A stretch of 64,000 bases of DNA. It comes from Patescibacteria group bacterium. GTDB taxonomy: Bacteria > Patescibacteriota > Minisyncoccia > Phycocordibacterales > UBA9973. A program made the translations under genes and the position numbers. Under the pieces are notes generated by a model, which was not told the DNA's origin, searched no databases, and saw nothing but the letters and a program-made list of their open reading frames with translations. The stretch covers positions 119,206 through 183,205 of the forward strand of contig JAGWUB010000001.1 in the NCBI GenBank assembly GCA_028868715.1, in the 5' to 3' direction. The first letter of the stretch is position 1, and the number at the start of each line of letters is the position of its first letter. Below, in pieces: positions 5,915 through 43,752 of this stretch.

Positions 5915-8344
5915 ATGCCAGGTAATAATAAAACAAAAATCAAGACTCTAGTATTACTGGATGCTCATGCCATAATACACCGCGCTTACCATGCTCTCCC
6001 AGAGTTTTTGTCTTCTGATGGCGTTCCGACCGGAGCATTGTATGGACTCGCCACTATGTTGATGAAGATTATCACTGACTTAAAACCAGATTACATCGTG
6101 GCTTGTTATGATTTACCGCAAAAAACCTTTCGCCATGAAGCGTATGATGCTTATAAAGCTGGAAGAAAAAAAACTGATGACGCCCTAGTCACTCAATTAA
6201 TCAACTCTCGTAGCATATTTGAAGCCTTTAATATTCCCATATATGACAGCCCAGGATTTGAAGCCGATGACGTGCTAGGGACAATTGTAGAAAACCACAA
6301 AAATGATAAAGGGATTAAGATAATAATTGCCTCTGGGGATATGGATACGATGCAGTTGGTAGATGATAAAAAAGTACAAGTTTACACTCTCAAGAAAGGT
6401 ATCAACGACACTATTTTATACGATGAAGATAAAGTCGTGGAGAGATTTCACTTTAAGCCTAAACTTTTGCCAGACTACAAAGGTTTGCGTGGTGACCCAT
6501 CAGACAATATTATTGGTATTAAAGGAATTGGAGAAAAAACGGCTGAAAGCTTGATTCTTAATTTTGGGACTATTGAAGAAATTTATAAGAAAATCAAACA
6601 GGATGAAGGTGCTTTTAAAAAGGCGGGCCTCAGTCCAAGAATGATAGAGTTAATAAAAAATAATGAAGAAGAAGCCTTATTTTCAAAAACTTTAGCAACT
6701 ATTCGCACTGACGCGCCAATAAATTTTACTTTACCTAAAAAAACTTTTTGGGAAAGCGCTGATTTAAAGAAGGTTGAGCAAGTTTTTATGCAGTATGAAT
6801 TTCGAAGTTTATTTGCGAGACTTAAAACTTTTTTTGGAAATAATTCAGCCGAACAGGGTTCAGTAGAATTTTCTCAGGTCCTCGGAGATGGGGCCCCAAC
6901 CCCAACCAGACCATTCCAAAATTCTCCGAACCCTGTTCGGCTGAAAGAAGCTAGTATTGCCCTCTGGCTGATAAATTCTGAAATAGCCAACCCAAAACTA
7001 GAAGATGTGTTGCACTTTGCAAGAACGGAGGATTTTGAAGTCGCTTACGAATATATTTTTAAAAAACTTAAGGAAAAGAAATTGGAAAAGGTTTATGAAG
7101 AAATCGAGCAACCCATAATGTCTATTGTGAAAGAGATGGAAGACCATGGAATTTTAATTGATAAAAAATATTTTACCCAGTTGTCGAACGAATATCACAA
7201 AGAGTTGGATAAATTGACGATCAAGATATATAAAATGGCTGGAACTGAGTTTAACATAAATTCTCCCAAACAATTAGGAGAAGTACTTTTTGATAAATTA
7301 GGGATAACGCCACCTGGGAAAAAAACAGCAAAAAAAAGCGCCAATGGATCTTTCAGTACTAAAATTTCTGTGTTAGAAGAATTAGAACAAGAGAATGAAA
7401 TTATCAAAGAGATAATGGCTTATCGAGAACTTCAAAAATTACTTTCCACCTACATAGATGTGATACCCAAAATGGTTGATGCCAATGATCGACTACACGC
7501 AAAATTTTTACAAAATGGATCTTCAACAGGCAGATTTTCCTCACAGGATCCAAACCTTCAAAATTTGCCGATTAAAACGGAATTGGGTAAAAGAATCAGG
7601 GGAGGGTTTATAGCAGAGAAGGGTTATAAAATTACCGCATTTGACTATAGTCAGATTGAGTTGCGGGTGGTAGCCATGTTGTCAGGAGATAAAAAAATGA
7701 CACAAGTTTTTCGTGAAAAAAAAGATATTCATGCCGGAGTGGCTGCACTTGTTTTTAGTGTACCGATAGATAAAGTCGATAGCGAGATGCGCCGTAAGGC
7801 CAAGGTGATAAATTTCGGTATTATTTATGGTATGGGAGTTACGGCTCTGCGTAAAAATCTAGGAGGCACTAGAGAAGAGGCACAAAAATTCTATGATAAT
7901 TATTTCAATCAATTTTCTGGAGTACGAGATTATTTGGCTGGAGTAAAGAAGTTTGCAGTGGAGCATACCTATACGGAAACATTGTTCGGCCGGAAAAGAA
8001 GTTTCCCAAATATAAATTCCAGAATTCCTTTTTTAAAAAATATGGCCGAACGCACAGCCATCAATGCTCCGGTTCAGGGAACGGCAGCAGATATAATAAA
8101 ACTAGCCATTAGATACACCGACGAAGCTCTTAAAAAAGCAGGTTTACTAAAACAGGTACACTTGATGCTACAAATACATGACGAGCTAGTATACGAGATA
8201 GATGAAAGTGTGCTCACCAAAGCAAGTAAAATAATAAAAGATGCTATGGAAGGTGTACTAATGGAGTCATATTTGCATTATAAAACTGATATACCCCTAG
8301 AAGTTCACTATAATTCTGGTAATAATTTTGGGGAAGTAAAATAA
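5915..8344 (+). CDS. polA: DNA polymerase I (compact; carries an in-frame palindromic insertion)
   Basis: 5'-3' exonuclease motifs (LLDAH, EADD, GDPSDNI), DYSQIELR, AKVINFGIIYG, LQIHDEL; ATG at 5915. Confidence 0.96.
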   Translation: MPGNNKTKIKTLVLLDAHAIIHRAYHALPEFLSSDGVPTGALYGLATMLMKIITDLKPDYIVACYDLPQKTFRHEAYDAYKAGRKKTDDALVTQLINSRSIFEAFNIPIYDSPGFEADDVLGTIVENHKNDKGIKIIIASGDMDTMQLVDDKKVQVYTLKKGINDTILYDEDKVVERFHFKPKLLPDYKGLRGDPSDNIIGIKGIGEKTAESLILNFGTIEEIYKKIKQDEGAFKKAGLSPRMIELIKNNEEEALFSKTLATIRTDAPINFTLPKKTFWESADLKKVEQVFMQYEFRSLFARLKTFFGNNSAEQGSVEFSQVLGDGAPTPTRPFQNSPNPVRLKEASIALWLINSEIANPKLEDVLHFARTEDFEVAYEYIFKKLKEKKLEKVYEEIEQPIMSIVKEMEDHGILIDKKYFTQLSNEYHKELDKLTIKIYKMAGTEFNINSPKQLGEVLFDKLGITPPGKKTAKKSANGSFSTKISVLEELEQENEIIKEIMAYRELQKLLSTYIDVIPKMVDANDRLHAKFLQNGSSTGRFSSQDPNLQNLPIKTELGKRIRGGFIAEKGYKITAFDYSQIELRVVAMLSGDKKMTQVFREKKDIHAGVAALVFSVPIDKVDSEMRRKAKVINFGIIYGMGVTALRKNLGGTREEAQKFYDNYFNQFSGVRDYLAGVKKFAVEHTYTETLFGRKRSFPNINSRIPFLKNMAERTAINAPVQGTAADIIKLAIRYTDEALKKAGLLKQVHLMLQIHDELVYEIDESVLTKASKIIKDAMEGVLMESYLHYKTDIPLEVHYNSGNNFGEVK
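6844..6945. repeat. In-frame palindromic insertion element, family B (polA copy)
   Basis: Perfect 18-bp inverted repeat TTCAGCCGAACAGGGTTC 6844-6861/6928-6945; 102 bp = 34 codons; core resembles 15517-15603. Confidence 0.8.
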
Positions 8345-8393
8345 TTTACCTACCTACCTGCCAGTCGGCAGATTTTGTGGTATAATCCATAAA

Positions 8394-8864
8394 ATGGAAA
8401 CTGAAACTAAAAAGACCCACAAAGCCACAGTACACAGGGTTTTAGCCCACACCTATACAGTGTATTTGGTGTTGTTTTTGGTTGGAGTTTGTCTTGATTT
8501 TATCTTTAAAATTAAAATTTTAGAAGACTCTATCGTGGTACCAGTCGGTTTCTTTTTTCTGGTATTAGCTTCTGTGCTTATCATTTGGGCGCAAAAGACT
8601 GGACGGGACTTGAGAAAAGTTTCTGAAGTAAAAACTGAACATTTTTGCAAGGGTCCATATTGCTATACTCGTATACCTACCCAGTGGGGCCTATTCTTTT
8701 TAATGTTGGGGTTTGGTATTATCACTAATGCTTTTTTTGTAATTTTATCTACAATTGTTTCATTTTTTATTTCAAAATTCTTTTTCCAAAATAAGCATGA
8801 CAAACTTTTGGTTGAAAAATACGGTGATGCTTACGTAGAATACAAAAAATTAGTTAGGTTTTAA
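8394..8864 (+). CDS. Membrane protein, isoprenylcysteine carboxyl methyltransferase/PEMT-like family
   Basis: Several TM helices, GPY..TR.P motif, KYGDAY.EYKK.V C-terminus. Confidence 0.7.
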   Translation: METETKKTHKATVHRVLAHTYTVYLVLFLVGVCLDFIFKIKILEDSIVVPVGFFFLVLASVLIIWAQKTGRDLRKVSEVKTEHFCKGPYCYTRIPTQWGLFFLMLGFGIITNAFFVILSTIVSFFISKFFFQNKHDKLLVEKYGDAYVEYKKLVRF

Positions 8865-8867
8865 ATT

Positions 8868-9515
8868 ATGATATACCTTTTTACAGGGGATGATACTAAA
8901 AAAAAGCTTCCGGCCTATGAAAAATTTATAAAATCCATCCCAGCAGGGACGGAGAAATTTTTCATAAACAGGAATGATCTCAATCCTACGCAGATAGAAA
9001 GTTTTTACTCTGGGAGAGGACTATTCTTTAATAAATGCGCAATTGTATTTTCGGATATTTTAGAACGAGAAGAAGGACGGGAATTTATTTTAAAGAGATT
9101 AAAATTTATGAGCGATTCGGACAACTCTTTTATTTTTTTAGAAAGAAAATTAAACAAGCCGGTGGTAGATGCTTTTAAAAAGCACAAGAGTGAGCTTAAT
9201 ATATTTGAGCTAGCTAAAGAAAAAAAAGAGAAATTTAACAACTTTTTACTGGCTGATGCTTTTGAACAAAAAGATAAGTTGAATCTTTGGATTTATTATC
9301 GACAGGCCGTAGATAAAGGGGTGGGCTTAGAGGAACTCGTCGGGGTACTTTTCTGGAAAGCGAAAGACATGTTCTTGAAACGCAGATTTGGTAAGTTTAA
9401 AGAAGAGCAAGTAAAGAGTTTTGCTGAAAAACTCCCATATCTTTTATCAGAAGCTCGAAAGGCTGGCCGTGATGCCGAAATAGTTTTTGAGCAGTTTTTA
9501 CTAAGCGCTTTTTAA
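8868..9515 (+). CDS. holA: Short DNA polymerase III delta subunit (HolA)-like protein
   Basis: MIYLFTGDD N-terminus, F.LADAF..KDK C-terminal helix pattern. Confidence 0.6.
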   Translation: MIYLFTGDDTKKKLPAYEKFIKSIPAGTEKFFINRNDLNPTQIESFYSGRGLFFNKCAIVFSDILEREEGREFILKRLKFMSDSDNSFIFLERKLNKPVVDAFKKHKSELNIFELAKEKKEKFNNFLLADAFEQKDKLNLWIYYRQAVDKGVGLEELVGVLFWKAKDMFLKRRFGKFKEEQVKSFAEKLPYLLSEARKAGRDAEIVFEQFLLSAF

Positions 9516-9559
9516 TTATCTTGATTTTTAGCCTTATTTCCTATATATTTTGTATTCAA

Positions 9560-9635
9560 GCGCCCGTAGCTCAGTCGGTAGAGCAGCTCCCTTTTAAGGA
9601 GATGGTCGTAGGTTCGATTCCTACCGGGCGCACCA
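9560..9635 (+). tRNA. tRNA-Lys (TTT)
   Basis: GCGCCCG acceptor stem, anticodon loop CTTTTAA, GTTCGATTC, encoded CCA. Confidence 0.95.
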
Positions 9636-9672
9636 ACACAAACCTCGTAAAGAATGTGTTAACATGTAAAGT

Positions 9673-9810
9673 ATGCATAGGATTAATTTAACTTTAGTAT
9701 TTTTTCTTATCTTTACTATCATAAGTTCTGCGTTGGCTTATAAAATTGTAATGAGTGCTTATGATACCTATGATATTAGCTATAGTGAAGTTCAAGTAAC
9801 ACATAAATGA
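9673..9810 (+). CDS. 45-aa single-TM micro-protein overlapping the uvrB start
   Basis: Manual translation MHRINLTLVFFLIFTIISSALAYKIVMSAYDTYDISYSEVQVTHK*; ATGA overlap with uvrB at 9807-9810. Confidence 0.55.
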   Translation: MHRINLTLVFFLIFTIISSALAYKIVMSAYDTYDISYSEVQVTHK

Positions 9811-11999
9811 GTATTTTTAAATTACATAATCCATTTCAGCCTGCTGGGGATCAACCAGCAGCCATTTTAAAACTAGTCCAAGGACTCAAAGATGGCATGC
9901 AGGCTCAGACATTGCTCGGTGCTACAGGCACGGGGAAGACTTTTACTATGGCTAATGTCATTGCAAAGCACAACAAACCCACTCTCGTGATAGCTCACAA
10001 TAAAACTCTCGCGGCACAACTAGCTCAAGAATTTCGGGAATTTTTCCCCACAGCTGCTGTGCATTATTTTGTTTCTTATTATGACTATTATCAACCCGAA
10101 GCTTATATGCCGGCATCGGATACTTATATTGAAAAAGATGCCTCCATCAATAAAGAGATAGACCGGCTTCGCCATGCTACCACTCAAGCGCTACTTACTA
10201 GACCAGATGTAATAATCGTAGCCTCCGTTTCCTGTATTTATGGCTTGGGTTCTCCGGAAGAGTACGAAAAAGTAAATTTAAAACTCGAAATAGGCCAGAA
10301 AATGGATAGGCTTGCGCTGATGAAAAGACTTATAACCATCCATTTTGAACGCACTAATGCCGACCTTACTTCTGGGAAATTCCGCTCTATTGGTTCTAGG
10401 GTAGAATTTATGCCGGTGTCAGAAATTATTATGTATCAAATAGAATTTTCTGGCGGAGTAATTGCTAAAATTACTAAAATTGACCCAGTTTCATCACACA
10501 TTCTTTCTGAAGAAAAAAATATCTTTATTTTCCCAGCAAAACATTTTATTACCGAAGACGTGAAGAAAAAAAGAGCTTTAGTGGAAATAAAAAAGGAACT
10601 AGAAACACAACTTAAGAAATTTAAAAAAGAAGGAAAGCTTTTAGAAGCTGAAAGAATTAAAAGAAGAACAAATTATGACCTAGCAATGATAAAAGAGATC
10701 GGATATTGTAATGGTATTGAAAATTATTCTCGACATCTCTCTGGCAAAGCCGAGGGAGAACCACCTGAAACTCTTTTGTCATACTTTCCTCATATAAAAA
10801 ATCCGGAACATACTCGCCGTCATTCGCACTCTGTTCTGGAAGGGAAAGACTTATCTGGTCGCAGCAAAGATTCCTCTGAGTATGTTCAGGACTTCCTAAC
10901 GATCATTGATGAATCGCATGTGACCTTACCACAACTGCAGGGGATGTATGCTGGTGATGCTTCGCGTAAAAATACCCTTGTAGAATATGGCTTTCGTCTG
11001 CCTTCAGCCAAAGATAACCGACCACTGAAATATGAAGAATTCAAGGAGCGCATAGGGCAAGTCGTATACACCAGTGCTACGCCAAGCGAAAGAGAACGTA
11101 GTCAAAGTGAACAAATTGTAGAACAGATTATTCGGCCGACAGGTTTAGTAGACCCAGAAACAATTGTTCGCCCAATCGGCGAAAAAAATAAATACAAAGG
11201 TCAGATATCAGATTTTATAGAGGAGACAGAAAAAACAATTAAAAAAGGATTTAGAGTTTTGGCGACCACGTTGACCAAAAAAATGGCAGAAGATCTTTCT
11301 ACTTATTTGAAAGATAAGAAAATCAAAGCAGAATATTTACATAGTGATATCAAGACGATGGATAGAATAAAAATTCTCACTCAGTTTCGTAAAGGGGAGT
11401 TTGATGTTTTGGTTGGGGTAAATCTTTTACGGGAAGGGCTAGATTTGCCTGAAGTAGCCTTGATTGGAATTTTAGATGCTGATAAATCTGGATTCCTAAG
11501 ATCTGAAACGTCGCTCATCCAAACCATTGGCCGAGCAGCCCGAAACAGTGAAGGGCGGGTTATTCTGTATGCTGACATCATGACGGATGCGATGGACTAT
11601 GCGTTAAAGGAAACTAAACGGCGTCGAGACATCCAGATTGCTTATAATAAAAAGCATGGTATCACCGCGACGACAATAAATAAAAAAATTCACGATATTA
11701 CTGAAGAGCTAGAGAGTGAGCATGGGAAAGTGGTAAACGCTGAACTCTTGCTAGACGTAGAGCTTTTCAAAAAAGCTTTTGCGAAAGACAAGAGCAATAA
11801 AGGGAAAAATGAATCTGATTCAATCAAAAATCTGGCGTTGAGTGATGAAGAAAGAAATAAAATAGTTTACGACAAGATAATAAAACTCAAAGAAAAAGAA
11901 ATGAACAAAGCCGTGAAAGAACTCGACTTCGAAACTGCTGCAATCTTGCGGGATGAAATTGTAGTTTTAAAAACTAGATTGGATAAAAAAGAAAAATAA
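9807..11999 (+). CDS. uvrB: Excinuclease ABC subunit B (with in-frame insertion)
   Basis: GATGTGKTFT, YYDYYQPEAY, IDESH, GFRLPSA.DNRPL, LLREGLD, C-terminal UVR domain. Confidence 0.97.
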   Translation: MSIFKLHNPFQPAGDQPAAILKLVQGLKDGMQAQTLLGATGTGKTFTMANVIAKHNKPTLVIAHNKTLAAQLAQEFREFFPTAAVHYFVSYYDYYQPEAYMPASDTYIEKDASINKEIDRLRHATTQALLTRPDVIIVASVSCIYGLGSPEEYEKVNLKLEIGQKMDRLALMKRLITIHFERTNADLTSGKFRSIGSRVEFMPVSEIIMYQIEFSGGVIAKITKIDPVSSHILSEEKNIFIFPAKHFITEDVKKKRALVEIKKELETQLKKFKKEGKLLEAERIKRRTNYDLAMIKEIGYCNGIENYSRHLSGKAEGEPPETLLSYFPHIKNPEHTRRHSHSVLEGKDLSGRSKDSSEYVQDFLTIIDESHVTLPQLQGMYAGDASRKNTLVEYGFRLPSAKDNRPLKYEEFKERIGQVVYTSATPSERERSQSEQIVEQIIRPTGLVDPETIVRPIGEKNKYKGQISDFIEETEKTIKKGFRVLATTLTKKMAEDLSTYLKDKKIKAEYLHSDIKTMDRIKILTQFRKGEFDVLVGVNLLREGLDLPEVALIGILDADKSGFLRSETSLIQTIGRAARNSEGRVILYADIMTDAMDYALKETKRRRDIQIAYNKKHGITATTINKKIHDITEELESEHGKVVNAELLLDVELFKKAFAKDKSNKGKNESDSIKNLALSDEERNKIVYDKIIKLKEKEMNKAVKELDFETAAILRDEIVVLKTRLDKKEK
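10802..10891. repeat. In-frame palindromic insertion element, family A (uvrB copy)
   Basis: 80-bp core 10807-10886 is 79/80 identical to 15111-15190; arms TCCGGAACATACTC / GAGTATGTTCAGGA; 90 bp = 30 codons. Confidence 0.92.
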
Positions 12000-12111
12000 A
12001 GACTTTTTAGTTTTTTCTGCTATACTAGAAGCAGTTAAATATAGATAGACACCCCCTATGAACAAGGCCGGGTGTGATTGTGTTATATATAGCAAAAATT
12101 AGTGAAAACCA

Positions 12112-14730
12112 ATGAAAAATCAGCAAAATATAGATAAAATAAGGGTTAAAGGGGCACGGACTCATAACCTCAAGAATATAGACATTGAGATGCCACGCAA
12201 CAAGATGGTGGTTATTACTGGCGTGTCTGGGAGTGGCAAAAGCTCACTTGCCTTTGATACTATCTTCGCCGAGGGACAGCGTCGATATGTAGAATCTCTT
12301 TCTTCGTATGCTCGACAATTTTTAAATCAAATGCCTAAGCCAGATGTGGATGAGATCACGGGTCTTTCTCCAGCAATTTCCATTGACCAAAAATCTCGGT
12401 CCAACAATCCACGCTCCACGGTGGCGACCATCACTGAAATTTATGACTATCTACGGGTGATGTATGCACGCATTGGGCATCCACATTGTCCCAAGTGTGG
12501 AGAGGAAATTAAAAAACTTTCCAACGAAGAAATTTTGAATTTTGTCTTAGAAAAGATAAATACTTTGACTAAAAGTAAAAAGAATAATAAAAAAATTATG
12601 GGGGTGGAATATGATGATACAAAAATTAGTATTTTTTCTCCCATTGTTCGTGGACGCAAGGGGGAATATTACCAATTACTCTACGATTTACTTGGGAAAG
12701 GTTTTTCTGAAATCCGCTTAGATGGTGTTATGAAAAAACTTCGCGAACAAATAACTCTTTCAAAAAATAAAGCGCACAACATAGATATTTTAGTAGATAG
12801 TTTTGCGGTGCATGAGTTTAAAGATAATAGGGAATCAAGTCGCATGCGACTTTCTGAAGCTCTAGAGAGGGCACTATTAGAAGCTGATGGATTAGTTTCT
12901 ATCAAAATAGGAGATGAAGAATTTATAATGTCTTCTAAGTTTGCCTGTAAAAATGACGGATTTTCTTTTCCAGAAGTCGAACCTCGTCTATTTTCTTTTA
13001 ACTCTCCATATGGCGCCTGTCCAACCTGTAATGGTTTGGGTTCTAAATATTTTATGGGAGATGAACCATGTGAAGACTGCAAGGGTGCGCGATTGCGACC
13101 CGAAGCTTTAAATGTCTTCTTAACCGCAGATGTTTTGGGAGATAATGGTAAGGCTCATAAAAGTAAAGTAAATATTTTAAATCTCGCTTCTCTCTCAATA
13201 AAAGATGCCCATAATTTCTTTAAAAACTTAAAACTTTCGGAGCAAGAGAAGGAAATATCTGTGCCGGTGGTTCGAGAAATAGAAGCTCGACTTCAATTTA
13301 TGCTAGATGTTGGTTTAGACTATTTACAATTGTCCCGTAAGGCTAATACACTCTCTGGTGGTGAGGCTCAACGCATACGTCTGGCTTCTCAGCTGGGCTC
13401 ACGGCTAGTGGGAGCGTTGTATGTGCTAGACGAACCAACCATAGGTTTACACCAGCGAGACAATGATCGCTTGATCAAGACCTTGGAAAATTTAAGAGAT
13501 TTAGGGAATACAATTTTAATTGTGGAGCATGATGAGGATACAATTTATGCCTCAGATTATATTGTGGACATCGGACCCAAGGCTGGAGTGCACGGAGGGG
13601 AAGTCATTGTCGCTGGATATCTTGAAGATTTATTAACTGCAAAGAAAAATACAAATAATTCTCGGACACTTTCATATTTACGTGGTGAGACAAAAATAGA
13701 AATTCCTAAAAAGCGCCGGGCTAGCAAAGGAGTGCTACGTATCGCTGGAGGCAAAGTTTTTAATATAAAAAATATGAATGTGGAGGTACCCTTGGGGGTG
13801 ATGACATCGATTACTGGTGTTTCTGGTTCTGGTAAAAGTTCTTTTATGTATGAAATTCTTTACAAGAATCTTCAAGGACGATTAGAACGTAAATATCGCA
13901 CCGCTAAAATTTTTAACTGCAGTAGTTTTAGTGGCACTGAATATCTTTCTCGGGCAATTTTAATTGACCAATCTCCAATTGGTAGAACCCCACGTTCCAA
14001 TATCGCTACTTATACAGGAGCTTTTACCCATATCCGAGATCTCTTTGCGACGACTGAAGAAGCGCGACTTCGTGGCTGGAAAGCAAACCGTTTTTCATTC
14101 AATGTAAAAGGTGGACGTTGCGAAGCCTGCGAGGGTAATGGTGAGATAGCAGTTGAAATGCATTTCTTGCCGACAGTTTATGTGACCTGTGATGTATGTA
14201 ACGGAAAACGTTTCGACAAGGAAACACTTACCGTAAAATACAAAAAGAAAAATATTTATGAAGTCCTACATATGACTGTAGAAAATGGATTAACTTTTTT
14301 CAAAGATATCCCAGCAGTTTCTGACAGATTGCAAACTTTGATGGATGTGGGTCTTGGTTATCTGGAGTTGGGACAGAGTGCTACGACTCTTTCAGGAGGA
14401 GAAGCACAACGGGTAAAAATTAGCAGTGAGCTTTATCGCCCACATACTGAAAAGACTATATATTTGCTTGATGAGCCTACTGTCGGACTGCACTATGATG
14501 ATGTGCAAAAGCTCTTAGAGGTGCTAAATAAGCTTGTAAGTAAAGGGAATACTGTGGTTCTGATAGAGCATAATTTGGATATAGTTAAAAGTTCTGATTA
14601 TATAATAGATATAGGTCCTGAAGGCGGAGTGTTGGGCGGAAACCTTGTAGCCAAAGGAACTCCAGAGGAGATTGCCAATAATGCCAAGAGTTATACCGGA
14701 AAATATTTAAAAAAAGTTCTCAAGAAATAA
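12112..14730 (+). CDS. uvrA: Excinuclease ABC subunit A
   Basis: Two ABC ATPase modules (GVSGSGKSS, LSGGEAQR) and zinc-finger Cys pairs. Confidence 0.97.
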   Translation: MKNQQNIDKIRVKGARTHNLKNIDIEMPRNKMVVITGVSGSGKSSLAFDTIFAEGQRRYVESLSSYARQFLNQMPKPDVDEITGLSPAISIDQKSRSNNPRSTVATITEIYDYLRVMYARIGHPHCPKCGEEIKKLSNEEILNFVLEKINTLTKSKKNNKKIMGVEYDDTKISIFSPIVRGRKGEYYQLLYDLLGKGFSEIRLDGVMKKLREQITLSKNKAHNIDILVDSFAVHEFKDNRESSRMRLSEALERALLEADGLVSIKIGDEEFIMSSKFACKNDGFSFPEVEPRLFSFNSPYGACPTCNGLGSKYFMGDEPCEDCKGARLRPEALNVFLTADVLGDNGKAHKSKVNILNLASLSIKDAHNFFKNLKLSEQEKEISVPVVREIEARLQFMLDVGLDYLQLSRKANTLSGGEAQRIRLASQLGSRLVGALYVLDEPTIGLHQRDNDRLIKTLENLRDLGNTILIVEHDEDTIYASDYIVDIGPKAGVHGGEVIVAGYLEDLLTAKKNTNNSRTLSYLRGETKIEIPKKRRASKGVLRIAGGKVFNIKNMNVEVPLGVMTSITGVSGSGKSSFMYEILYKNLQGRLERKYRTAKIFNCSSFSGTEYLSRAILIDQSPIGRTPRSNIATYTGAFTHIRDLFATTEEARLRGWKANRFSFNVKGGRCEACEGNGEIAVEMHFLPTVYVTCDVCNGKRFDKETLTVKYKKKNIYEVLHMTVENGLTFFKDIPAVSDRLQTLMDVGLGYLELGQSATTLSGGEAQRVKISSELYRPHTEKTIYLLDEPTVGLHYDDVQKLLEVLNKLVSKGNTVVLIEHNLDIVKSSDYIIDIGPEGGVLGGNLVAKGTPEEIANNAKSYTGKYLKKVLKK

Positions 14731-14734
14731 TTTT

Positions 14735-16051
14735 ATGAAAATTGAATCTTTCAAAAAAATAAAATTACCAAATAAACCCGGAGTATATTTTTTTCAAAAA
14801 GGTAAAACTATTTTATATATTGGTAAGGCAACTTCTCTTCGAGATAGGGTCAAAAGTTATTTTGGGAGAGATTTGATCAACACCCGAGGTCCGCTTTTAG
14901 TAGATATGATTTTTAAGGTAGATAAAATAAAGTGGCAGGAGACAGACAGTGTCTTGGAATCACTTATCTTAGAAGCTAGTTTCATAAAGAAACACCAACC
15001 TTACTACAACACTAAAGAAAAAGATGATAAAAGTTTTAACTATGTAATTATTACAAAAGAAAAACTACCCAAAGTTATTACCATTCGAGGCAAAGAATTA
15101 AAGATGCAGAAACATACTCGCCGTCATTCGCACTCTGTTCTGGAAGGGAAAGACTTATCTGGTCGTAGCAAAGATTCCTCTGAGTATGTTTCTGCATCTT
15201 TCGGTCCGTTTACGAGTGGTCCTCAATTACGTGAAGCATTGAAAATAATCCGCAAGATTTTTCCATTCCTAGACGATAAAAGTAAAAATTATATGGAATT
15301 TTATCGGCAGATAAATTTAGTACCAGATTTAAATGACCATAAATTATACTTGCAAAACATAAGGAACATAAAATTATTTTTTCAAGGCAAAAAGAAAGAA
15401 ATTTTTAGAAATCTAAAAAAGGAAATGCATGCTTATGCCAAAGCCAGAGAATTTGAAAAGGCAAGCGAAATAAAAAGACAGCTTTTTGCTCTGCAACATA
15501 TAAATGACATTGCTATGTTGAAACAAGAATCTACTTTTTCTCAGTCGCTCGGGGATGAGCTTCGCTCAACCACTCCTTCAAAAAAGCAAATTCTTGTTTC
15601 AGCCTCTATACGTATAGAGGCTTACGACATAGCTCATATGGGAGGTAAAAATATGGTTGGGGCTATGGTAGTGCTTGAAAATGGTGAGCCAGCAAAGAGT
15701 GAATATAAAAGGTTCAAAATTAGAACTCAAGACAATACAAATGATACTGGGGCACTAAAGGAAGTGCTGGAAAGGAGGCTGGCACATACAGAATGGGCCT
15801 ACCCGAGCTTGATAGTTGTAGATGGTGGCACAGCGCAAATAAATGTAACTAAAAATGTTTTAAATAAGCTCAAGGTAAATATTCCTATAGTTTCAGTATT
15901 AAAAGACGAACGACACAAACCCAAAGATATTATGGGTGACAAAAAAAATGCTTTGAAGTACAAGCGAGAAATTTTATTAGCCAATAGTGAGGCGCATAGA
16001 TTTGCCATTGCTTATCATAAAAATATGCGCAACAAAAACTTTTTGAAATAA
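14735..16051 (+). CDS. uvrC: Excinuclease ABC subunit C (short form, two in-frame insertions)
   Basis: GIY-YIG N-terminus (PGVYFF..YIGKA.SLR.RV.SYF), UVR helix, RIEAYDIAH, VVDGG, EAHRFAI. Confidence 0.92.
   Translation: MKIESFKKIKLPNKPGVYFFQKGKTILYIGKATSLRDRVKSYFGRDLINTRGPLLVDMIFKVDKIKWQETDSVLESLILEASFIKKHQPYYNTKEKDDKSFNYVIITKEKLPKVITIRGKELKMQKHTRRHSHSVLEGKDLSGRSKDSSEYVSASFGPFTSGPQLREALKIIRKIFPFLDDKSKNYMEFYRQINLVPDLNDHKLYLQNIRNIKLFFQGKKKEIFRNLKKEMHAYAKAREFEKASEIKRQLFALQHINDIAMLKQESTFSQSLGDELRSTTPSKKQILVSASIRIEAYDIAHMGGKNMVGAMVVLENGEPAKSEYKRFKIRTQDNTNDTGALKEVLERRLAHTEWAYPSLIVVDGGTAQINVTKNVLNKLKVNIPIVSVLKDERHKPKDIMGDKKNALKYKREILLANSEAHRFAIAYHKNMRNKNFLK
15100..15201. repeat. In-frame palindromic insertion element, family A (uvrC copy)
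   Basis: Perfect 20-bp inverted repeat AAAGATGCAGAAACATACTC 15100-15119/15182-15201; 102 bp = 34 codons; same core as the uvrB copy. Confidence 0.92.
15517..15603. repeat. In-frame palindromic insertion element, family B (uvrC copy)
   Basis: 23-bp inverted repeat with 3 mismatches 15517-15539/15581-15603; 87 bp = 29 codons; core TTTTCTCAG..CTCGG.GATG-hairpin-AACCA shared with the polA copy. Confidence 0.78.
15601..15622. repeat. Perfect 22-bp palindrome in uvrC
   Basis: AGCCTCTATACGTATAGAGGCT is its own reverse complement. Confidence 0.85.
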
Positions 16052-16530
16052 TGAAAATTAAACAGGAAAATATTTTAATATTAAATGATATTCGAAGTGT
16101 AGAAAATGTGGGCGCGATATTTCGTACCGCTGATGCAGCGGGGATAATTAAAATTTATTTAACAGGTTACACCCCAGCTCCGCTTGATCGTTTCGGACGA
16201 AAGCGAAAAGACCTAGCTAAGTCTGCGCTCGGGGCAGAGGAGTTTGTGGCTTGGGAGCAGAAGAAAAGTATTTTACCACTTTTGGAAAAACTAAAACGAG
16301 AAAATTATTTAATTATAGCTATTGAGCAAGATGAAAAATCTATTGATTACAAAAAGGTGAAATTAAAAAACAAAAACGTATTTATTGTCGGAGCAGAAGT
16401 CACGGGCATACCAAAAAATATTTTACAAAAGTGTGACGTTATTGCTGAGATTCCAATGCGAGGCAAAAAAGAATCATTGAACGTTTCAGTGGCACTTGGA
16501 GTGGCGCTGTTCGGTATGCTTAAGATTTAA
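16051..16530 (+). CDS. TrmH/SpoU-family RNA 2'-O-methyltransferase
   Basis: IRSVENVGAIFRTAD, IVGAEVTG, IPMRGKKESLNVSVA. Confidence 0.9.
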   Translation: MKIKQENILILNDIRSVENVGAIFRTADAAGIIKIYLTGYTPAPLDRFGRKRKDLAKSALGAEEFVAWEQKKSILPLLEKLKRENYLIIAIEQDEKSIDYKKVKLKNKNVFIVGAEVTGIPKNILQKCDVIAEIPMRGKKESLNVSVALGVALFGMLKI

Positions 16531-16533
16531 TAT

Positions 16534-16649
16534 TTGCGGAAATTAAAATCCTACCGGACTCACCACGAAATTTTTTTGCTAAAAAATTTCTCTGTCCGTC
16601 GCCGTCGCTCCTACCAAGGGTTCGCTCGGCAGCATTTTAATTTCCACAA
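16534..16649. repeat. Intergenic palindromic element, family C
   Basis: 23-bp inverted arms with 3 mismatches 16534-16556/16627-16649; inner hairpin 16567-16590; reverse complement resembles 43681-43738. Confidence 0.72.
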
Positions 16650-16650
16650 C

Positions 16651-17550
16651 CTACTTTTGACAATGGGGGCAGAAGATTGTTGTTCGGCTTTGGATGATAG
16701 TTTTCTTCAGCGGTTTGCCACAATTAACACACAGCTTGCCGGCCTTGCCATAAACTTTATGTTCTCTCGCATAGTTGCCCCTAGTATCGTCTAGTAGTCT
16801 GTATGTAGCCACAGAGGAACCGCCGACTTTGATTGCTCGATGCATAATTCTCAATATAGCCTTACGCAGTTTAGTTACTTCAGAGATAGAAAGAGAATTA
16901 GCATTTCTGTCTGGACGGACACGTGCTTCAAATAAACTCTCATCAGCGTAAATATTCCCGAGACCAGTCACTATTTTTTGATCCATTAATACCGCTTTAA
17001 TTTTTCCCTTCTTTTGTTTGAGTGCTTCCTTAAAATATTTGAGAGTAAATTTGGGTGAAAGTGGTTCCAAGCCTAGTAACCCGAAATGGTTTTCTAATTC
17101 AAACATTTTTGTATTCTTATAATATAGAAGATACCCAAACATTCGGGTGTCGTTATAATAGAGAGCTCCACGCTCAAGTTCAAATAGCACGTGAGTGTGT
17201 TTATTGGGGAGTTTTGTCTCTGATAGTTCTATGGGATGACCGCCACTGATAACCTTTGAATTAGTGAAGGACTTATAGACAAATTGTCCAGACATTTTAA
17301 GATGCGCCAAAATGATTTTTCCATGACTCAATTTAAAAATAAGATTTTTGGCCCGTCTATCAACTGCAATAAATCGTTCTCCAGTGACTCCTTTTATAAA
17401 CTCTGCTTTTTTCTTTTCGGATGCTGTACGCTGAGTTCCTTTACCAGAAACAAGCTTTGGTTTACTAATTTTCACTATACGGATTTTTTGACCGAGAATT
17501 ACTCGGACGAGTCCTTGTCTTAGGTTTTCTACTTCAGGTAATTCAGGCAT
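16651..17550 (-). CDS. mutM: Formamidopyrimidine-DNA glycosylase
   Basis: MPELPEVE, HLKMSG, GLGNIYADESLF, C-terminal zinc finger. Confidence 0.96.
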   Translation of the reverse strand: MPELPEVENLRQGLVRVILGQKIRIVKISKPKLVSGKGTQRTASEKKKAEFIKGVTGERFIAVDRRAKNLIFKLSHGKIILAHLKMSGQFVYKSFTNSKVISGGHPIELSETKLPNKHTHVLFELERGALYYNDTRMFGYLLYYKNTKMFELENHFGLLGLEPLSPKFTLKYFKEALKQKKGKIKAVLMDQKIVTGLGNIYADESLFEARVRPDRNANSLSISEVTKLRKAILRIMHRAIKVGGSSVATYRLLDDTRGNYAREHKVYGKAGKLCVNCGKPLKKTIIQSRTTIFCPHCQK

Positions 17551-22221: not shown

Positions 22222-24261
22222 TTATTGTGTCACAGTGGTAGTTTTTCTACCAGAAGGTTGCTCCAAAGTCGTGGTAGTTTTTCTCTGGAATGATTGACCA
22301 AAGAGGTATTTAGCCAAAAGGATCAATACTAAGATTAGAATCAAGAGTAGAAGCCAACCAAAGATACTGTTTGGTAGGAAGCCAGCTCCGAAGACATTTG
22401 CTCCAAGAGATACACCAGATACAGTTCCACAAACATTTGCTGAGACATTTGCGCTGACTGATTGTGGCGCACCAGAAGGATCAACATAACTCAAGGTAGC
22501 AGGGAAGTTCAAAGGTGCACCAGCGGATATATTTTCTCTTACATGCACTCTGGCTGTCACTGTACCTTGTCCGTTTGCTCGCAAGGTTCCCAAGTTAAAG
22601 ATTAAAGTTTGCCCAGAAATAGTTGCGTTGCTTGGATTTGAGGATAGGTAAGTAACTTCTGCTGGAAGATCTACTCGCAGCACTAGGCCAGTAATAGATG
22701 CATTGCCGATGTTTTGATAAGTTATGCTGTAATTAATATCATCTCCAGGACATGGATTAGTATTGTCGAGCGTAGGGACGATTGGTCGATTACGGTCTAC
22801 GGTAGAAGTGACCAAGACCAAAGAGGTAGGTGTTCTATTAGTGGTAACTCCTAATACTTGTCCATTTACATTTACCGTCACAAAATCACTTGCTGATCCC
22901 ATACCATTAGTACAAGTTATTGAATAAGTTCTAGTGCCAGTCAAACTTCCAGTGTAGAAAGCACCTGGACCGATAGACTTTATTCCTGCCCAACCGACAG
23001 ATCCACCAGAGGCATTACAAGAAGTTGCATTAGTGGTGCTCCAGCGGATTGTCGTAGCTCCGTTGAAGGCTAGGTTAGTTTGATCTGCAGTTATAGTTAC
23101 TGTTGGTTGATAAGTTACTGGAAAAATGTTTCCACCAGTTACATAAACTGTAGTTGAACCAACTGCATTTCCAGTACCGTTACTACAATTTATATTGAAG
23201 GTCGTTGTGTTAGTTAGTGGTCCAGTGTAGAAACTTCCAGACAAATTTTGAGTGCCATACCAGCCGTTGGTGCCACCACTCGCGGTACAGTAAGTCGCAT
23301 TAGTCGAATACCAAGTTATGGTGCTTGTACCATTGTAGTTTACATTTGATGGGCTAGCGTAGATACTAACAACTGGATACTGTTGATTATTATAATTATT
23401 TACATAAACCGTAGTTGAAGCCACTGCACTTCCAGTACCGTTACTACAATTTATATTGAAGGTCGTTGTGTTAGTTAGTGGTCCAGTGTAGAAACTTCCA
23501 GACAAGTTTTGAGTGCCATACCAACCGTTGGTAGTACCACCACCTCCACTTGCTGTACAGTAACTTGCATTGGTTGAATACCAAGTTATGGTACTTGTGC
23601 CGTTGTAGTTTACATTTGATGGGCTAGCATAAATACTGACGGTCGGAACATTTTGGTTGTTATTTACATAAACCGTTGCAGTCGCGCTAGCTGATTGACC
23701 AGTACTATTTGTACAAGTAGTCGTGTAAGTCGTAGTTCCGGTCGGAGTAACTATACCCGATCCAGAGGTTGCAGTGCTTCCAGTCCAAAAAGCGGAGCAA
23801 GAAGTTGCATTAGTTGAATACCAAGTAAGAGTACTTGAATTACCAGAGTTAATAGTTGAAGGATTTGCATTTAGAGTTACAGTTGGAGTCGAGATTTGGT
23901 TACAAGAAGGAGTCGTAAAAGTTCTAGTTTCGCCAGTATAATTACCATTCCTATTTGAGGCCATCGCTCGGAACGAATAAACAGTATTTTCCGTAAGACC
24001 ACTTATGTATTGAGAGTAGCTTCCACTTACTGTAAAGCTTTGCTGAGGAGTAGTGTTATCAAGGGAACCACCTTGACCCCATTCAAACCATGCCAAAGTT
24101 GCCACACCGCCGGTATTAACATTTCCATCTAAAGTGGCGCTATTGCATGTCATTGCAAAAGCAGTCTTTGCTGGCATTAAGGGTACAGCCAAAATACCCA
24201 TAAATACGACCATACTTAGTAAAAGCAAACCTTTATTCAATTGTGTTTTTAAATTGTTCAT
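22222..24261 (-). CDS. Large Ser/Thr-rich cell-surface protein with tandem Ig-like repeats, DUF11-like domain and C-terminal TM anchor
   Basis: Signal peptide, repeated PTVTL.A.P..W.STNATSC.A units, PGDDINYSITYQNIG, C-terminal hydrophobic helix. Confidence 0.8.
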   Translation of the reverse strand: MNNLKTQLNKGLLLLSMVVFMGILAVPLMPAKTAFAMTCNSATLDGNVNTGGVATLAWFEWGQGGSLDNTTPQQSFTVSGSYSQYISGLTENTVYSFRAMASNRNGNYTGETRTFTTPSCNQISTPTVTLNANPSTINSGNSSTLTWYSTNATSCSAFWTGSTATSGSGIVTPTGTTTYTTTCTNSTGQSASATATVYVNNNQNVPTVSIYASPSNVNYNGTSTITWYSTNASYCTASGGGGTTNGWYGTQNLSGSFYTGPLTNTTTFNINCSNGTGSAVASTTVYVNNYNNQQYPVVSIYASPSNVNYNGTSTITWYSTNATYCTASGGTNGWYGTQNLSGSFYTGPLTNTTTFNINCSNGTGNAVGSTTVYVTGGNIFPVTYQPTVTITADQTNLAFNGATTIRWSTTNATSCNASGGSVGWAGIKSIGPGAFYTGSLTGTRTYSITCTNGMGSASDFVTVNVNGQVLGVTTNRTPTSLVLVTSTVDRNRPIVPTLDNTNPCPGDDINYSITYQNIGNASITGLVLRVDLPAEVTYLSSNPSNATISGQTLIFNLGTLRANGQGTVTARVHVRENISAGAPLNFPATLSYVDPSGAPQSVSANVSANVCGTVSGVSLGANVFGAGFLPNSIFGWLLLLILILVLILLAKYLFGQSFQRKTTTTLEQPSGRKTTTVTQ
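23140..23640 (-). repeat. Intragenic tandem duplication (about 261-bp period)
   Basis: 76 nt identical between 23169-23244 and 23430-23505, with similar flanks. Confidence 0.9.
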
Positions 24262-25447: not shown

Positions 25448-25939
25448 TTAGAACCCTAGGGCTTCCATAATTTTCTCTGAAAAAGTTTCTCTCATTTCTT
25501 CTTCGATTACATTTTTTTCAAGTAAGAAAGAACGAATATGTGGCGCCATATCGTTTTCTATCGGCGCTAAAATAATTGGCATAAAAAATCTTTCAGATTT
25601 TATGAAAAGAAGTGGTTTTAAGTTTTCACCGGGCTTTTCAGAAAAATTCTCTCTCTGGACCCAGAAAGATTTTATATTTTCATAAGGATAGAGACTAGTC
25701 TCAACACCAAACCCCCTGTCATTTAGTTCATAAGCCACCATTGTTGGTTTTTTTGTTGCTAAAAATCCAAGTAACACTCCACTCAAGATAATGAGTGCGG
25801 CAAAAAAATAATTGTTGTAAATAATGGCTGCGAGAGATGCGGTGACAACGATGATTCCGAGCGCCCAGAACCAATCATTGCTTCGCTCTTTATCTTCATA
25901 CTCCAAGGCAGACCATTGTAGATTTTCTCCTCTATTCAT
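25448..25939 (-). CDS. Conserved two-TM hypothetical protein typical of CPR bacteria
   Basis: W.A.EYE.K.RS.DWFW pattern, two TM helices, IKSFWV. Confidence 0.7.
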   Translation of the reverse strand: MNRGENLQWSALEYEDKERSNDWFWALGIIVVTASLAAIIYNNYFFAALIILSGVLLGFLATKKPTMVAYELNDRGFGVETSLYPYENIKSFWVQRENFSEKPGENLKPLLFIKSERFFMPIILAPIENDMAPHIRSFLLEKNVIEEEMRETFSEKIMEALGF

Positions 25940-43664: not shown

Positions 43665-43752
43665 TTCACTTCAATGAACCGGAGCCCGACGGGGTGAGGT
43701 GTGCCCAGGCAATTTTTCAGCAGAAAAATATGCGTGGGTTGAAGTGAAATAA
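43649..43752. repeat. Family C palindromic element with direct-inverted-direct copies of the rplK 3' end
   Basis: TTGAAGTGAAATAA at 43651-43664 and 43739-43752; inverted copy TTCACTTCAATG at 43665-43676; core resembles the reverse complement of 16560-16611. Confidence 0.8.

Follow-up and report, generated by a model that had tools for sequence, protein, structure and literature searches.

The 64,000-nt window analysed here, from contig JAGWUB010000001.1 of a Patescibacteria group bacterium (assembly GCA_028868715.1; genome G000 below), raises the question of how nearly the same stretch of DNA came to lie in frame in two unrelated genes, uvrB and uvrC, and by what kind of element it was brought there. 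A sequence-only reading of the window had described an 80-bp repeat as a recently active, non-autonomous coding element. We find that the unit is larger than 80 bp: each insert is a hairpin of about 100 nt, in which a conserved head of 62 nt is closed by a stem of about 21 bp that is specific to the copy. This stem, which partly mirrors the codons of the host gene, and an element of a second family within the same uvrC were missed by that reading.

The two copies themselves are real. The 80-mers at 10807-10886 and 15111-15190 are 79/80 identical and stand in the same frame, their sole mismatch (10862/15166) being synonymous in an Arg codon as first reported, and both encode one 26-residue peptide that is identical in UvrB and UvrC; the reading frames of both host genes are intact. 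The proposed BLASTN of the 80-mer against the genome of 600,548 bases returned these two copies (E 6e-37 and 2e-35) and none further (next best E 1.3), and a covariance model search of the genome likewise found only the uvrB and uvrC copies. The placement of the UvrB insertion just before the Walker B motif agrees with solved UvrB, in which the YFP motif is directly joined to the DESH strand and query residues 329-360 are absent, and many UvrB and UvrC orthologues lack the insert. All four junctions are supported by public contigs (four runs of one sample in one study, possibly the source sample): one contig traverses the whole uvrB copy with zero differences, and both uvrC junctions are covered by contigs that each break within the repeat. 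That the read-derived support comes from a single study, possibly from the source sample, is what could still be said for an assembly artefact; against it stands that many independent assemblies carry homologous inserts at that uvrB site, and a normal motif shared by the two proteins is opposed by the absence of the peptide region from solved UvrB and of any codon-position signal in the head. Both explanations are already largely refuted, and we regard them as hardly credible.

Table 1. Positions in the window of the two copies, their host genes and two elements with other heads
Feature	Position	Strand	Remark
uvrB, host of copy 1	9807..11999	+	730 aa, reading frame intact
Copy 1, left arm	10802..10815	+	14 bp, one mismatch to the right arm; pairs with 10878-10891
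Copy 1, head (62 nt)	10816..10877	-	family fold predicted opposite the mRNA; CGTC tag on the + strand
Copy 1, right arm	10878..10891	+	extends into host codons preceding the Walker B strand
uvrC, containing copy 2 and another element	14735..16051	+	438 aa, reading frame intact
Copy 2, left arm	15100..15119	+	20 bp, perfect; pairs with 15182-15201
Copy 2, head	15120..15181	-	61/62 identical to the copy 1 head
Copy 2, right arm	15182..15201	+	ends in the codon for the conserved Phe of the FGP motif
Another armed element in frame in uvrC	15519..15601	+	different head family
Third head family, in frame in polA	6844..6945	+	18-bp perfect arms, strong minus-strand fold

The 9-bp terminal inverted repeat noted earlier is present as the inner end of longer arms, which are not alike in the two copies; since each copy has an arm sequence of its own, it is not a conserved terminal repeat. 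The 80-mer alone folds no better than shuffled sequences; the fold signal comes from the full arms. We compared the arms across a set of 125 distinct copies of the family, from which identical sequences had been removed and three relatives in genome G240 and one degenerate copy were left out, and in which near-identical strains may remain. In the 112 copies with the standard register (13 were set aside), pairing of the arms is found in 68-100% at positions 1-20, in 52% at position 21, in 39% at position 22 and in 20-28% from position 23. Among arm positions only the innermost 5 are conserved, and in four of five sites the left arms of different copies share just 10-14 of 20 positions. Within a site (the two uvrB sites, polA and cca), the left arm agrees with the right arm of its own copy at 17-18 of 20 positions and with that of another copy at 10-14. 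A subfamily specific to cca has arms that are diverse yet matched, and arms of 17-23 bp were found in five of the six intergenic copies. The same architecture occurs in other head families at the same loops.

What the arms match can be seen at the first uvrB site, where the right arm traverses the PDFL codons, which are present in empty alleles too. In 21 of the 24 in-register copies the left arm there is complementary to the host Asp codon at its third base (13/13 with the T variant and 8/11 with the C variant; Fisher p 2e-4, with four out-of-register copies dropped and kin that are not independent), and short empty uvrB alleles hold no comparable repeat (score 3-6). The left arm of the window's uvrB copy fits Pro-Asp-Phe codons better than the present right flank, which reads Gln-Asp-Phe, and this fit suggests that the arm may be a copy of a flank that has since decayed. 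At the second uvrB site either flank can be the mirrored one, the clearest left-flank case being in the unpublished genome G084 and others in G007 and public records. A direct target duplication was seen at neither window copy; an inverted copy stands there instead.

Variation of the head is equal across the three codon positions (0.141, 0.144 and 0.148) and synonymous changes are not favoured (15 of 45, against 35 of 130 possible), which argues that the constraint on the head acts on the nucleic acid and not on the peptide; a function of the peptide was rejected, as no peptide-level constraint was seen. Over 190 pairs the head differs on average by 0.22 and synonymous sites by 0.67. At the same uvrB site in G092 the head differs from ours at 1 of 62 bases and the flanks at 53% of fourfold-degenerate sites, so that the head either changes slowly or is re-copied. 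Since heads change far more slowly than synonymous sites, high identity cannot date the uvrC copy, and recent activity does not follow from the 79/80 identity from which it had been concluded. On the strand opposite the mRNA the head can be drawn as a stem that is bulged and contains tandem purine mismatches, together with a small hairpin at the end; 95.7% of cells are paired in a structure that was derived from the same sequences on which it was scored. The head shows covariation; its central helix on that strand has 31 one-sided changes of the G-U type and 12 unpaired cells. Of the 125 copies, 106 carry a CGTC tag ahead of the inner stem, and in some copies the inner head appears corrected to Watson-Crick pairs. 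It is likely that the head folds as single-stranded DNA, probably of the strand opposite the mRNA. A sense-strand pairing of the purine run with the head's 3' end was also considered and set aside, because variants replace the purine run and keep the 3' end.

By DNA search, 6 of 36 genomes of the genus and none of 24 from other families contain relatives of the element. A model built from 52 copies matches 50 of 151 genomes of the Nomurabacteria-type genus, with 1-5 copies each, and, in an order-level draw of 151 genomes, only G000 and, weakly, one other genome, so that its matches are confined to the genus and this one weak case. An exact degenerate pattern of the head occurs at 51 loci in GTDB contigs and 55 in metagenomes and at none in viral contigs, and phage and plasmid records gave no match to the element; those GTDB loci that carry names belong to Nomurabacteria, Paceibacterota, Parcubacteria, Patescibacteria and uncultured Saccharibacteria. 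The suggestion of a non-autonomous in-frame coding repeat in a genome of the Candidate Phyla Radiation thus stands, with named relatives in Nomurabacteria and Paceibacterota. Rfam returned nothing on the element in window positions 6500-17000 or at seven family loci.

The 125 distinct copies comprise 119 genic and 6 non-coding ones. The genic copies occupy 17 sites in 13 genes, mostly genes for DNA repair or for tRNA and rRNA (uvrA at three sites, uvrB and uvrC at two each, and polA, recG, recJ, rnhA, tgt, cca, ksgA, leuS, ileS and carA); Pfam confirms uvrB, uvrC, polA, RNase H and a helicase as hosts, and the remaining names are those that we presume from motifs. In 108 of the 119 the element has the strand and frame seen in the window, 10 are antisense, and one has a frameshift just downstream, which is the only exception to an uninterrupted host frame (118/119). 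Of 58 copies tested, 55 have a second open sense frame, yet the window's frame prevails. Only 1 of the 125 copies lies at the uvrC site of the window, and this site is empty in G092, which is the closest of the relatives examined.

Occupancy of the first uvrB site turns over repeatedly and is no more clustered than chance: on a flank tree of 58 rows, enriched for carriers and labelled by pattern (28 with this family, 17 with other inserts and 13 short), it requires 20 changes, against 19.6 with shuffled labels, and starred branches force at least 10. Near-identical heads occur at different sites within one genome, with 0, 1, 2 and 3 differences in G121, G000, G065 and G092, respectively. Heads differ on average by 12.1 bases within a genome (35 pairs), by 13.4 at the same site elsewhere and by 14.6 at other sites, with a permutation p of 0.003 that is inflated by kinship, in a comparison including the unpublished genomes G084 and G146. 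Two uvrB alleles (L087 and L095) carry an inverted head followed by about the last 15 bases of a sense head, from about head position 47-48, and one short uvrB allele resembles the footprint of an arm-to-arm deletion. An antisense copy in recJ was considered as a further flip with duplication; a second recJ copy with a different downstream remnant weakens that case, and the two uvrB cases stand.

We searched for an enzyme that could mobilise such a unit. G000 gave no match for a Y1 transposase, a reverse transcriptase (RT), an HNH nuclease or MutS, in a search aimed at named families and not at the whole proteome against Pfam, so that other candidates may exist; it encodes RNase III, one tyrosine recombinase and two small GIY-YIG genes, none of them inside the window. 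Among the enzymes sought, only the GIY-YIG domain of UvrC itself lies in the window, in keeping with the earlier remark that no mobilising enzyme is visible there. Within the genus, 109 of 151 genomes have Y1-transposase-like genes, with as many as 14 matches, and 68 of 151 have RT genes. Neither is associated with the family (Y1 in 37/50 carriers and 72/101 others, p 0.85, with no head in 20 Y1 loci; RT in 21/50 and 47/101, p 0.61), and G000, G092 and G121, the holders of the most alike copies, have neither. Small GIY-YIG genes are common in the genus and present in G092, G121, G164 and G240, with fragments only in G065; at 31 such loci, one best locus being taken for each genome, the head lay beside none, and repeats of other kinds flank several of them. 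By elimination of the other enzymes and by the precedent of Ssn (PMC11893778), a small Ssn-like GIY-YIG nuclease is our best guess, though a doubtful one.

The reading that we favour, and consider fairly probable, is that of a selfish non-autonomous hairpin whose stem probably arises when target DNA is copied by fold-back, and then stays matched through template switching. At a new site, a free 3' end would copy the head and inner stem from a donor, then fold back, make an inverted duplicate of about 10-16 nt of the target next to it and rejoin with loss of a few host bases. Subsequent template switching may maintain the match between the arms and occasionally invert or duplicate the head, which slippage may remove; the flip-like and deletion-like uvrB alleles count for these steps. 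Only in-frame copies in tolerant loops would survive, with the peptide as a passenger. Several results weigh against this reading. The cca subfamily seems to descend from one insertion, and its diverse and matched arms would then also have been maintained after insertion. Where a genome has several copies, the head nearest to a given copy came from its own genome in 13 cases and from the same site in a different genome in 18, with 3 ties, and 1-5 copies per genome are few for a self-sustaining selfish population. The model matched none of 56 loci around GIY-YIG, Y1 or RT genes. As to the strand, A-C exceeds G-T not only in the arms (117 against 36) but also just outside them (106 against 60), so that the excess is partly compositional and the strand preference modest; only 80 of the 125 copies have their lower fold on the antisense strand, the two strands of the uvrC copy fold about equally well, and the window's head variant has a weakened fold. 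The closest empty allele available is no nearer than 85% nucleotide identity, and for this reason the alleles do not decide between formation of the full stem at insertion and afterwards.

This last point bears on the nearest rival, in which a short-ended MITE (a miniature transposable element with inverted repeats), or a derivative of the CGTC class of repetitive extragenic palindromes (REPs), inserts with a stem of 5-9 bp and generic template switching later extends and polishes the arms. Template switching is reported to correct imperfect inverted repeats (PMC5941160), and the lack of a MutS match, the mirroring of either flank, the matched arms of the cca subfamily and the corrected inner heads all suit such polishing. 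It leaves unexplained the sharp limit of 20-22 bp that is common to unrelated sites and intergenic copies, and some junctions at the second uvrB site look like host sequence added rather than replaced; we hold it to be unlikely. A structure kept by the host, such as a protein-binding site, a recombination or DNA-uptake signal, a pause or a terminator in repair and tRNA genes, would accord with head conservation far above that of synonymous sites, with the covariation, with the bias to genes of nucleic-acid enzymes and with distant relatives in G240 that lie directly behind genes and have terminator-like arms. This is distinctly improbable in our view, as 101 of 151 genomes of the genus have no match, in other species unrelated heads, or no insert at all, are found at the same loops, and a repair-gene bias is reported also for intragenic REPs (PMC3733652).

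An element acting at the RNA level, excised from mRNA at the stem by an RNase III-type enzyme and/or moved by an RT, appears very improbable. RNase III is encoded in G000 and the stem, of about two helical turns, has the size of an RNase III substrate; the G-U-type changes on the antisense strand are also in its favour. An uninterrupted host frame in nearly all genic copies would be needless under splicing, G000 has no RT and the genus no RT association, and no Rfam family matches the head. Extending the favoured reading of fold-back copying, we can imagine, as a possibility that falls short of being probable, a class of enzyme-mobilised miniature hairpins in Patescibacteria, which would make an inverted target duplication of about two helical turns by a single-strand nuclease and fold-back synthesis at each landing, with many unrelated heads moving by this route and displacing each other in the same protein loops.

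Other armed elements are present in this genome. The head family of the second uvrC element (Table 1) has four copies, with different arms at each site; we take the other three to lie in a ksgA-like gene (one) and an mnmA-like gene (two). The polA element occupies the loop where the family studied here sits in relatives. An intergenic armed element lies behind an RNA-methyltransferase-like gene (16534-16649), and a head 86% identical to its own is in frame in a 153-aa gene on contig C2. Two more hairpin-flanked inserts are found at 25581-25677 and 43665-43748, one in frame in a 163-aa gene and one intergenic. Direct repeats of 120-140 nt with 240-270-nt spacing (23139-23837) probably belong to a repeat-domain protein. 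As to the small GIY-YIG genes of G000, one (locus L040, 1460-1772; contig C1, about 207.3 kb) lies within a 21-bp inverted repeat, the conserved outer end of which is found again around non-coding spacers at other places in the genome, an architecture reverse to that of the family, and the other (locus L039, 1480-2040; C2, about 87 kb) adjoins a tRNA-like gene whose 3' end recurs inverted and direct. In G240, five distant head relatives (L270, L272-L275) stand just behind genes or a tRNA, with a loop of 55-56 nt in the three measured and perfect arms of 17-29 bp that end in A/T tracts like those of terminators.

These observations concern the question of how small coding palindromes such as Rickettsia palindromic elements (RPEs) and CGTC REPs move and why they prefer repair genes. 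The family offers a handle on it: a fixed head of 62 nt, a measurable stem of 21 bp that is partly target-derived, and a genome of 600 kb in which candidate enzymes are few. Should the stem form at insertion, it would be a transposition footprint unlike the direct duplications of insertion sequence (IS) elements and MITEs. In addition, core enzymes of minimal genomes are seen to gain and lose loops of 25-30 residues repeatedly.

Among known systems, the likeness to RPEs, the in-frame palindromic repeats of Rickettsia genes, was rightly drawn from the beginning: a small palindromic repeat without an enzyme of its own lies in frame in unrelated genes and gives them a shared peptide (as summarised in PMC10969869), and orthologues of the host genes studied here include empty ones. 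In the present family, by comparison, only the head is shared and the private stem partly mirrors host codons; it is 95% genic, has 1-5 copies per genome and lives in Patescibacteria. CGTC REPs resemble it in the CGTC tag 5' of the stem, in intragenic copies in uvrABC, polA and tRNA-enzyme genes and in lacking a dedicated transposase (PMC3733652). They have a stem of 8-9 bp, a loop of 4-5 nt and a CCA tail and are mostly extragenic, often as dimers, whereas the head here is a bulged stem with a branched loop of 30-plus nt inside a further variable stem of 21 bp, and 119 of 125 copies are genic. As RPEs and intragenic REPs precede it (PMC10969869; PMC3733652), neither the gene bias nor the shared peptide is new in kind. 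The NTS and SRM sequences of Ssn are similar as oriented single-stranded hairpins with GTC upstream of the stem in genomes having small GIY-YIG genes, and NTS are rarely inside genes (PMC11893778); the SRM pattern fits 0 of 125 copies, with the loop opened or not. REPINs share the non-autonomous hairpin, compensatory changes and conserved length (PMC3116915); our family is a REPIN inside-out, since REPINs are extragenic and have conserved ends and a variable middle, and it differs from the REPIN/RAYT system also in the lack of a Y1 gene in G000 and of a Y1 association in the genus. It is not a standard MITE, for it has no conserved terminal inverted repeats, and no direct target duplication was seen at the window copies. 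Template switching at quasi-palindromes is reported to homogenise arms and invert spacers (PMC5941160; PMC8604942), to which the matched arms and flip-like alleles seen here are similar; it is a mutational process without a mobile unit, a fixed arm length or a shared head. In the literature covered, which mostly excludes subscription journals, we found no description of the element or of host-mirroring stems in Patescibacteria. The element is thus a real variant of the RPE- or CGTC-like coding repeats, apparently undescribed until now, and its host-derived stem is what distinguishes it.

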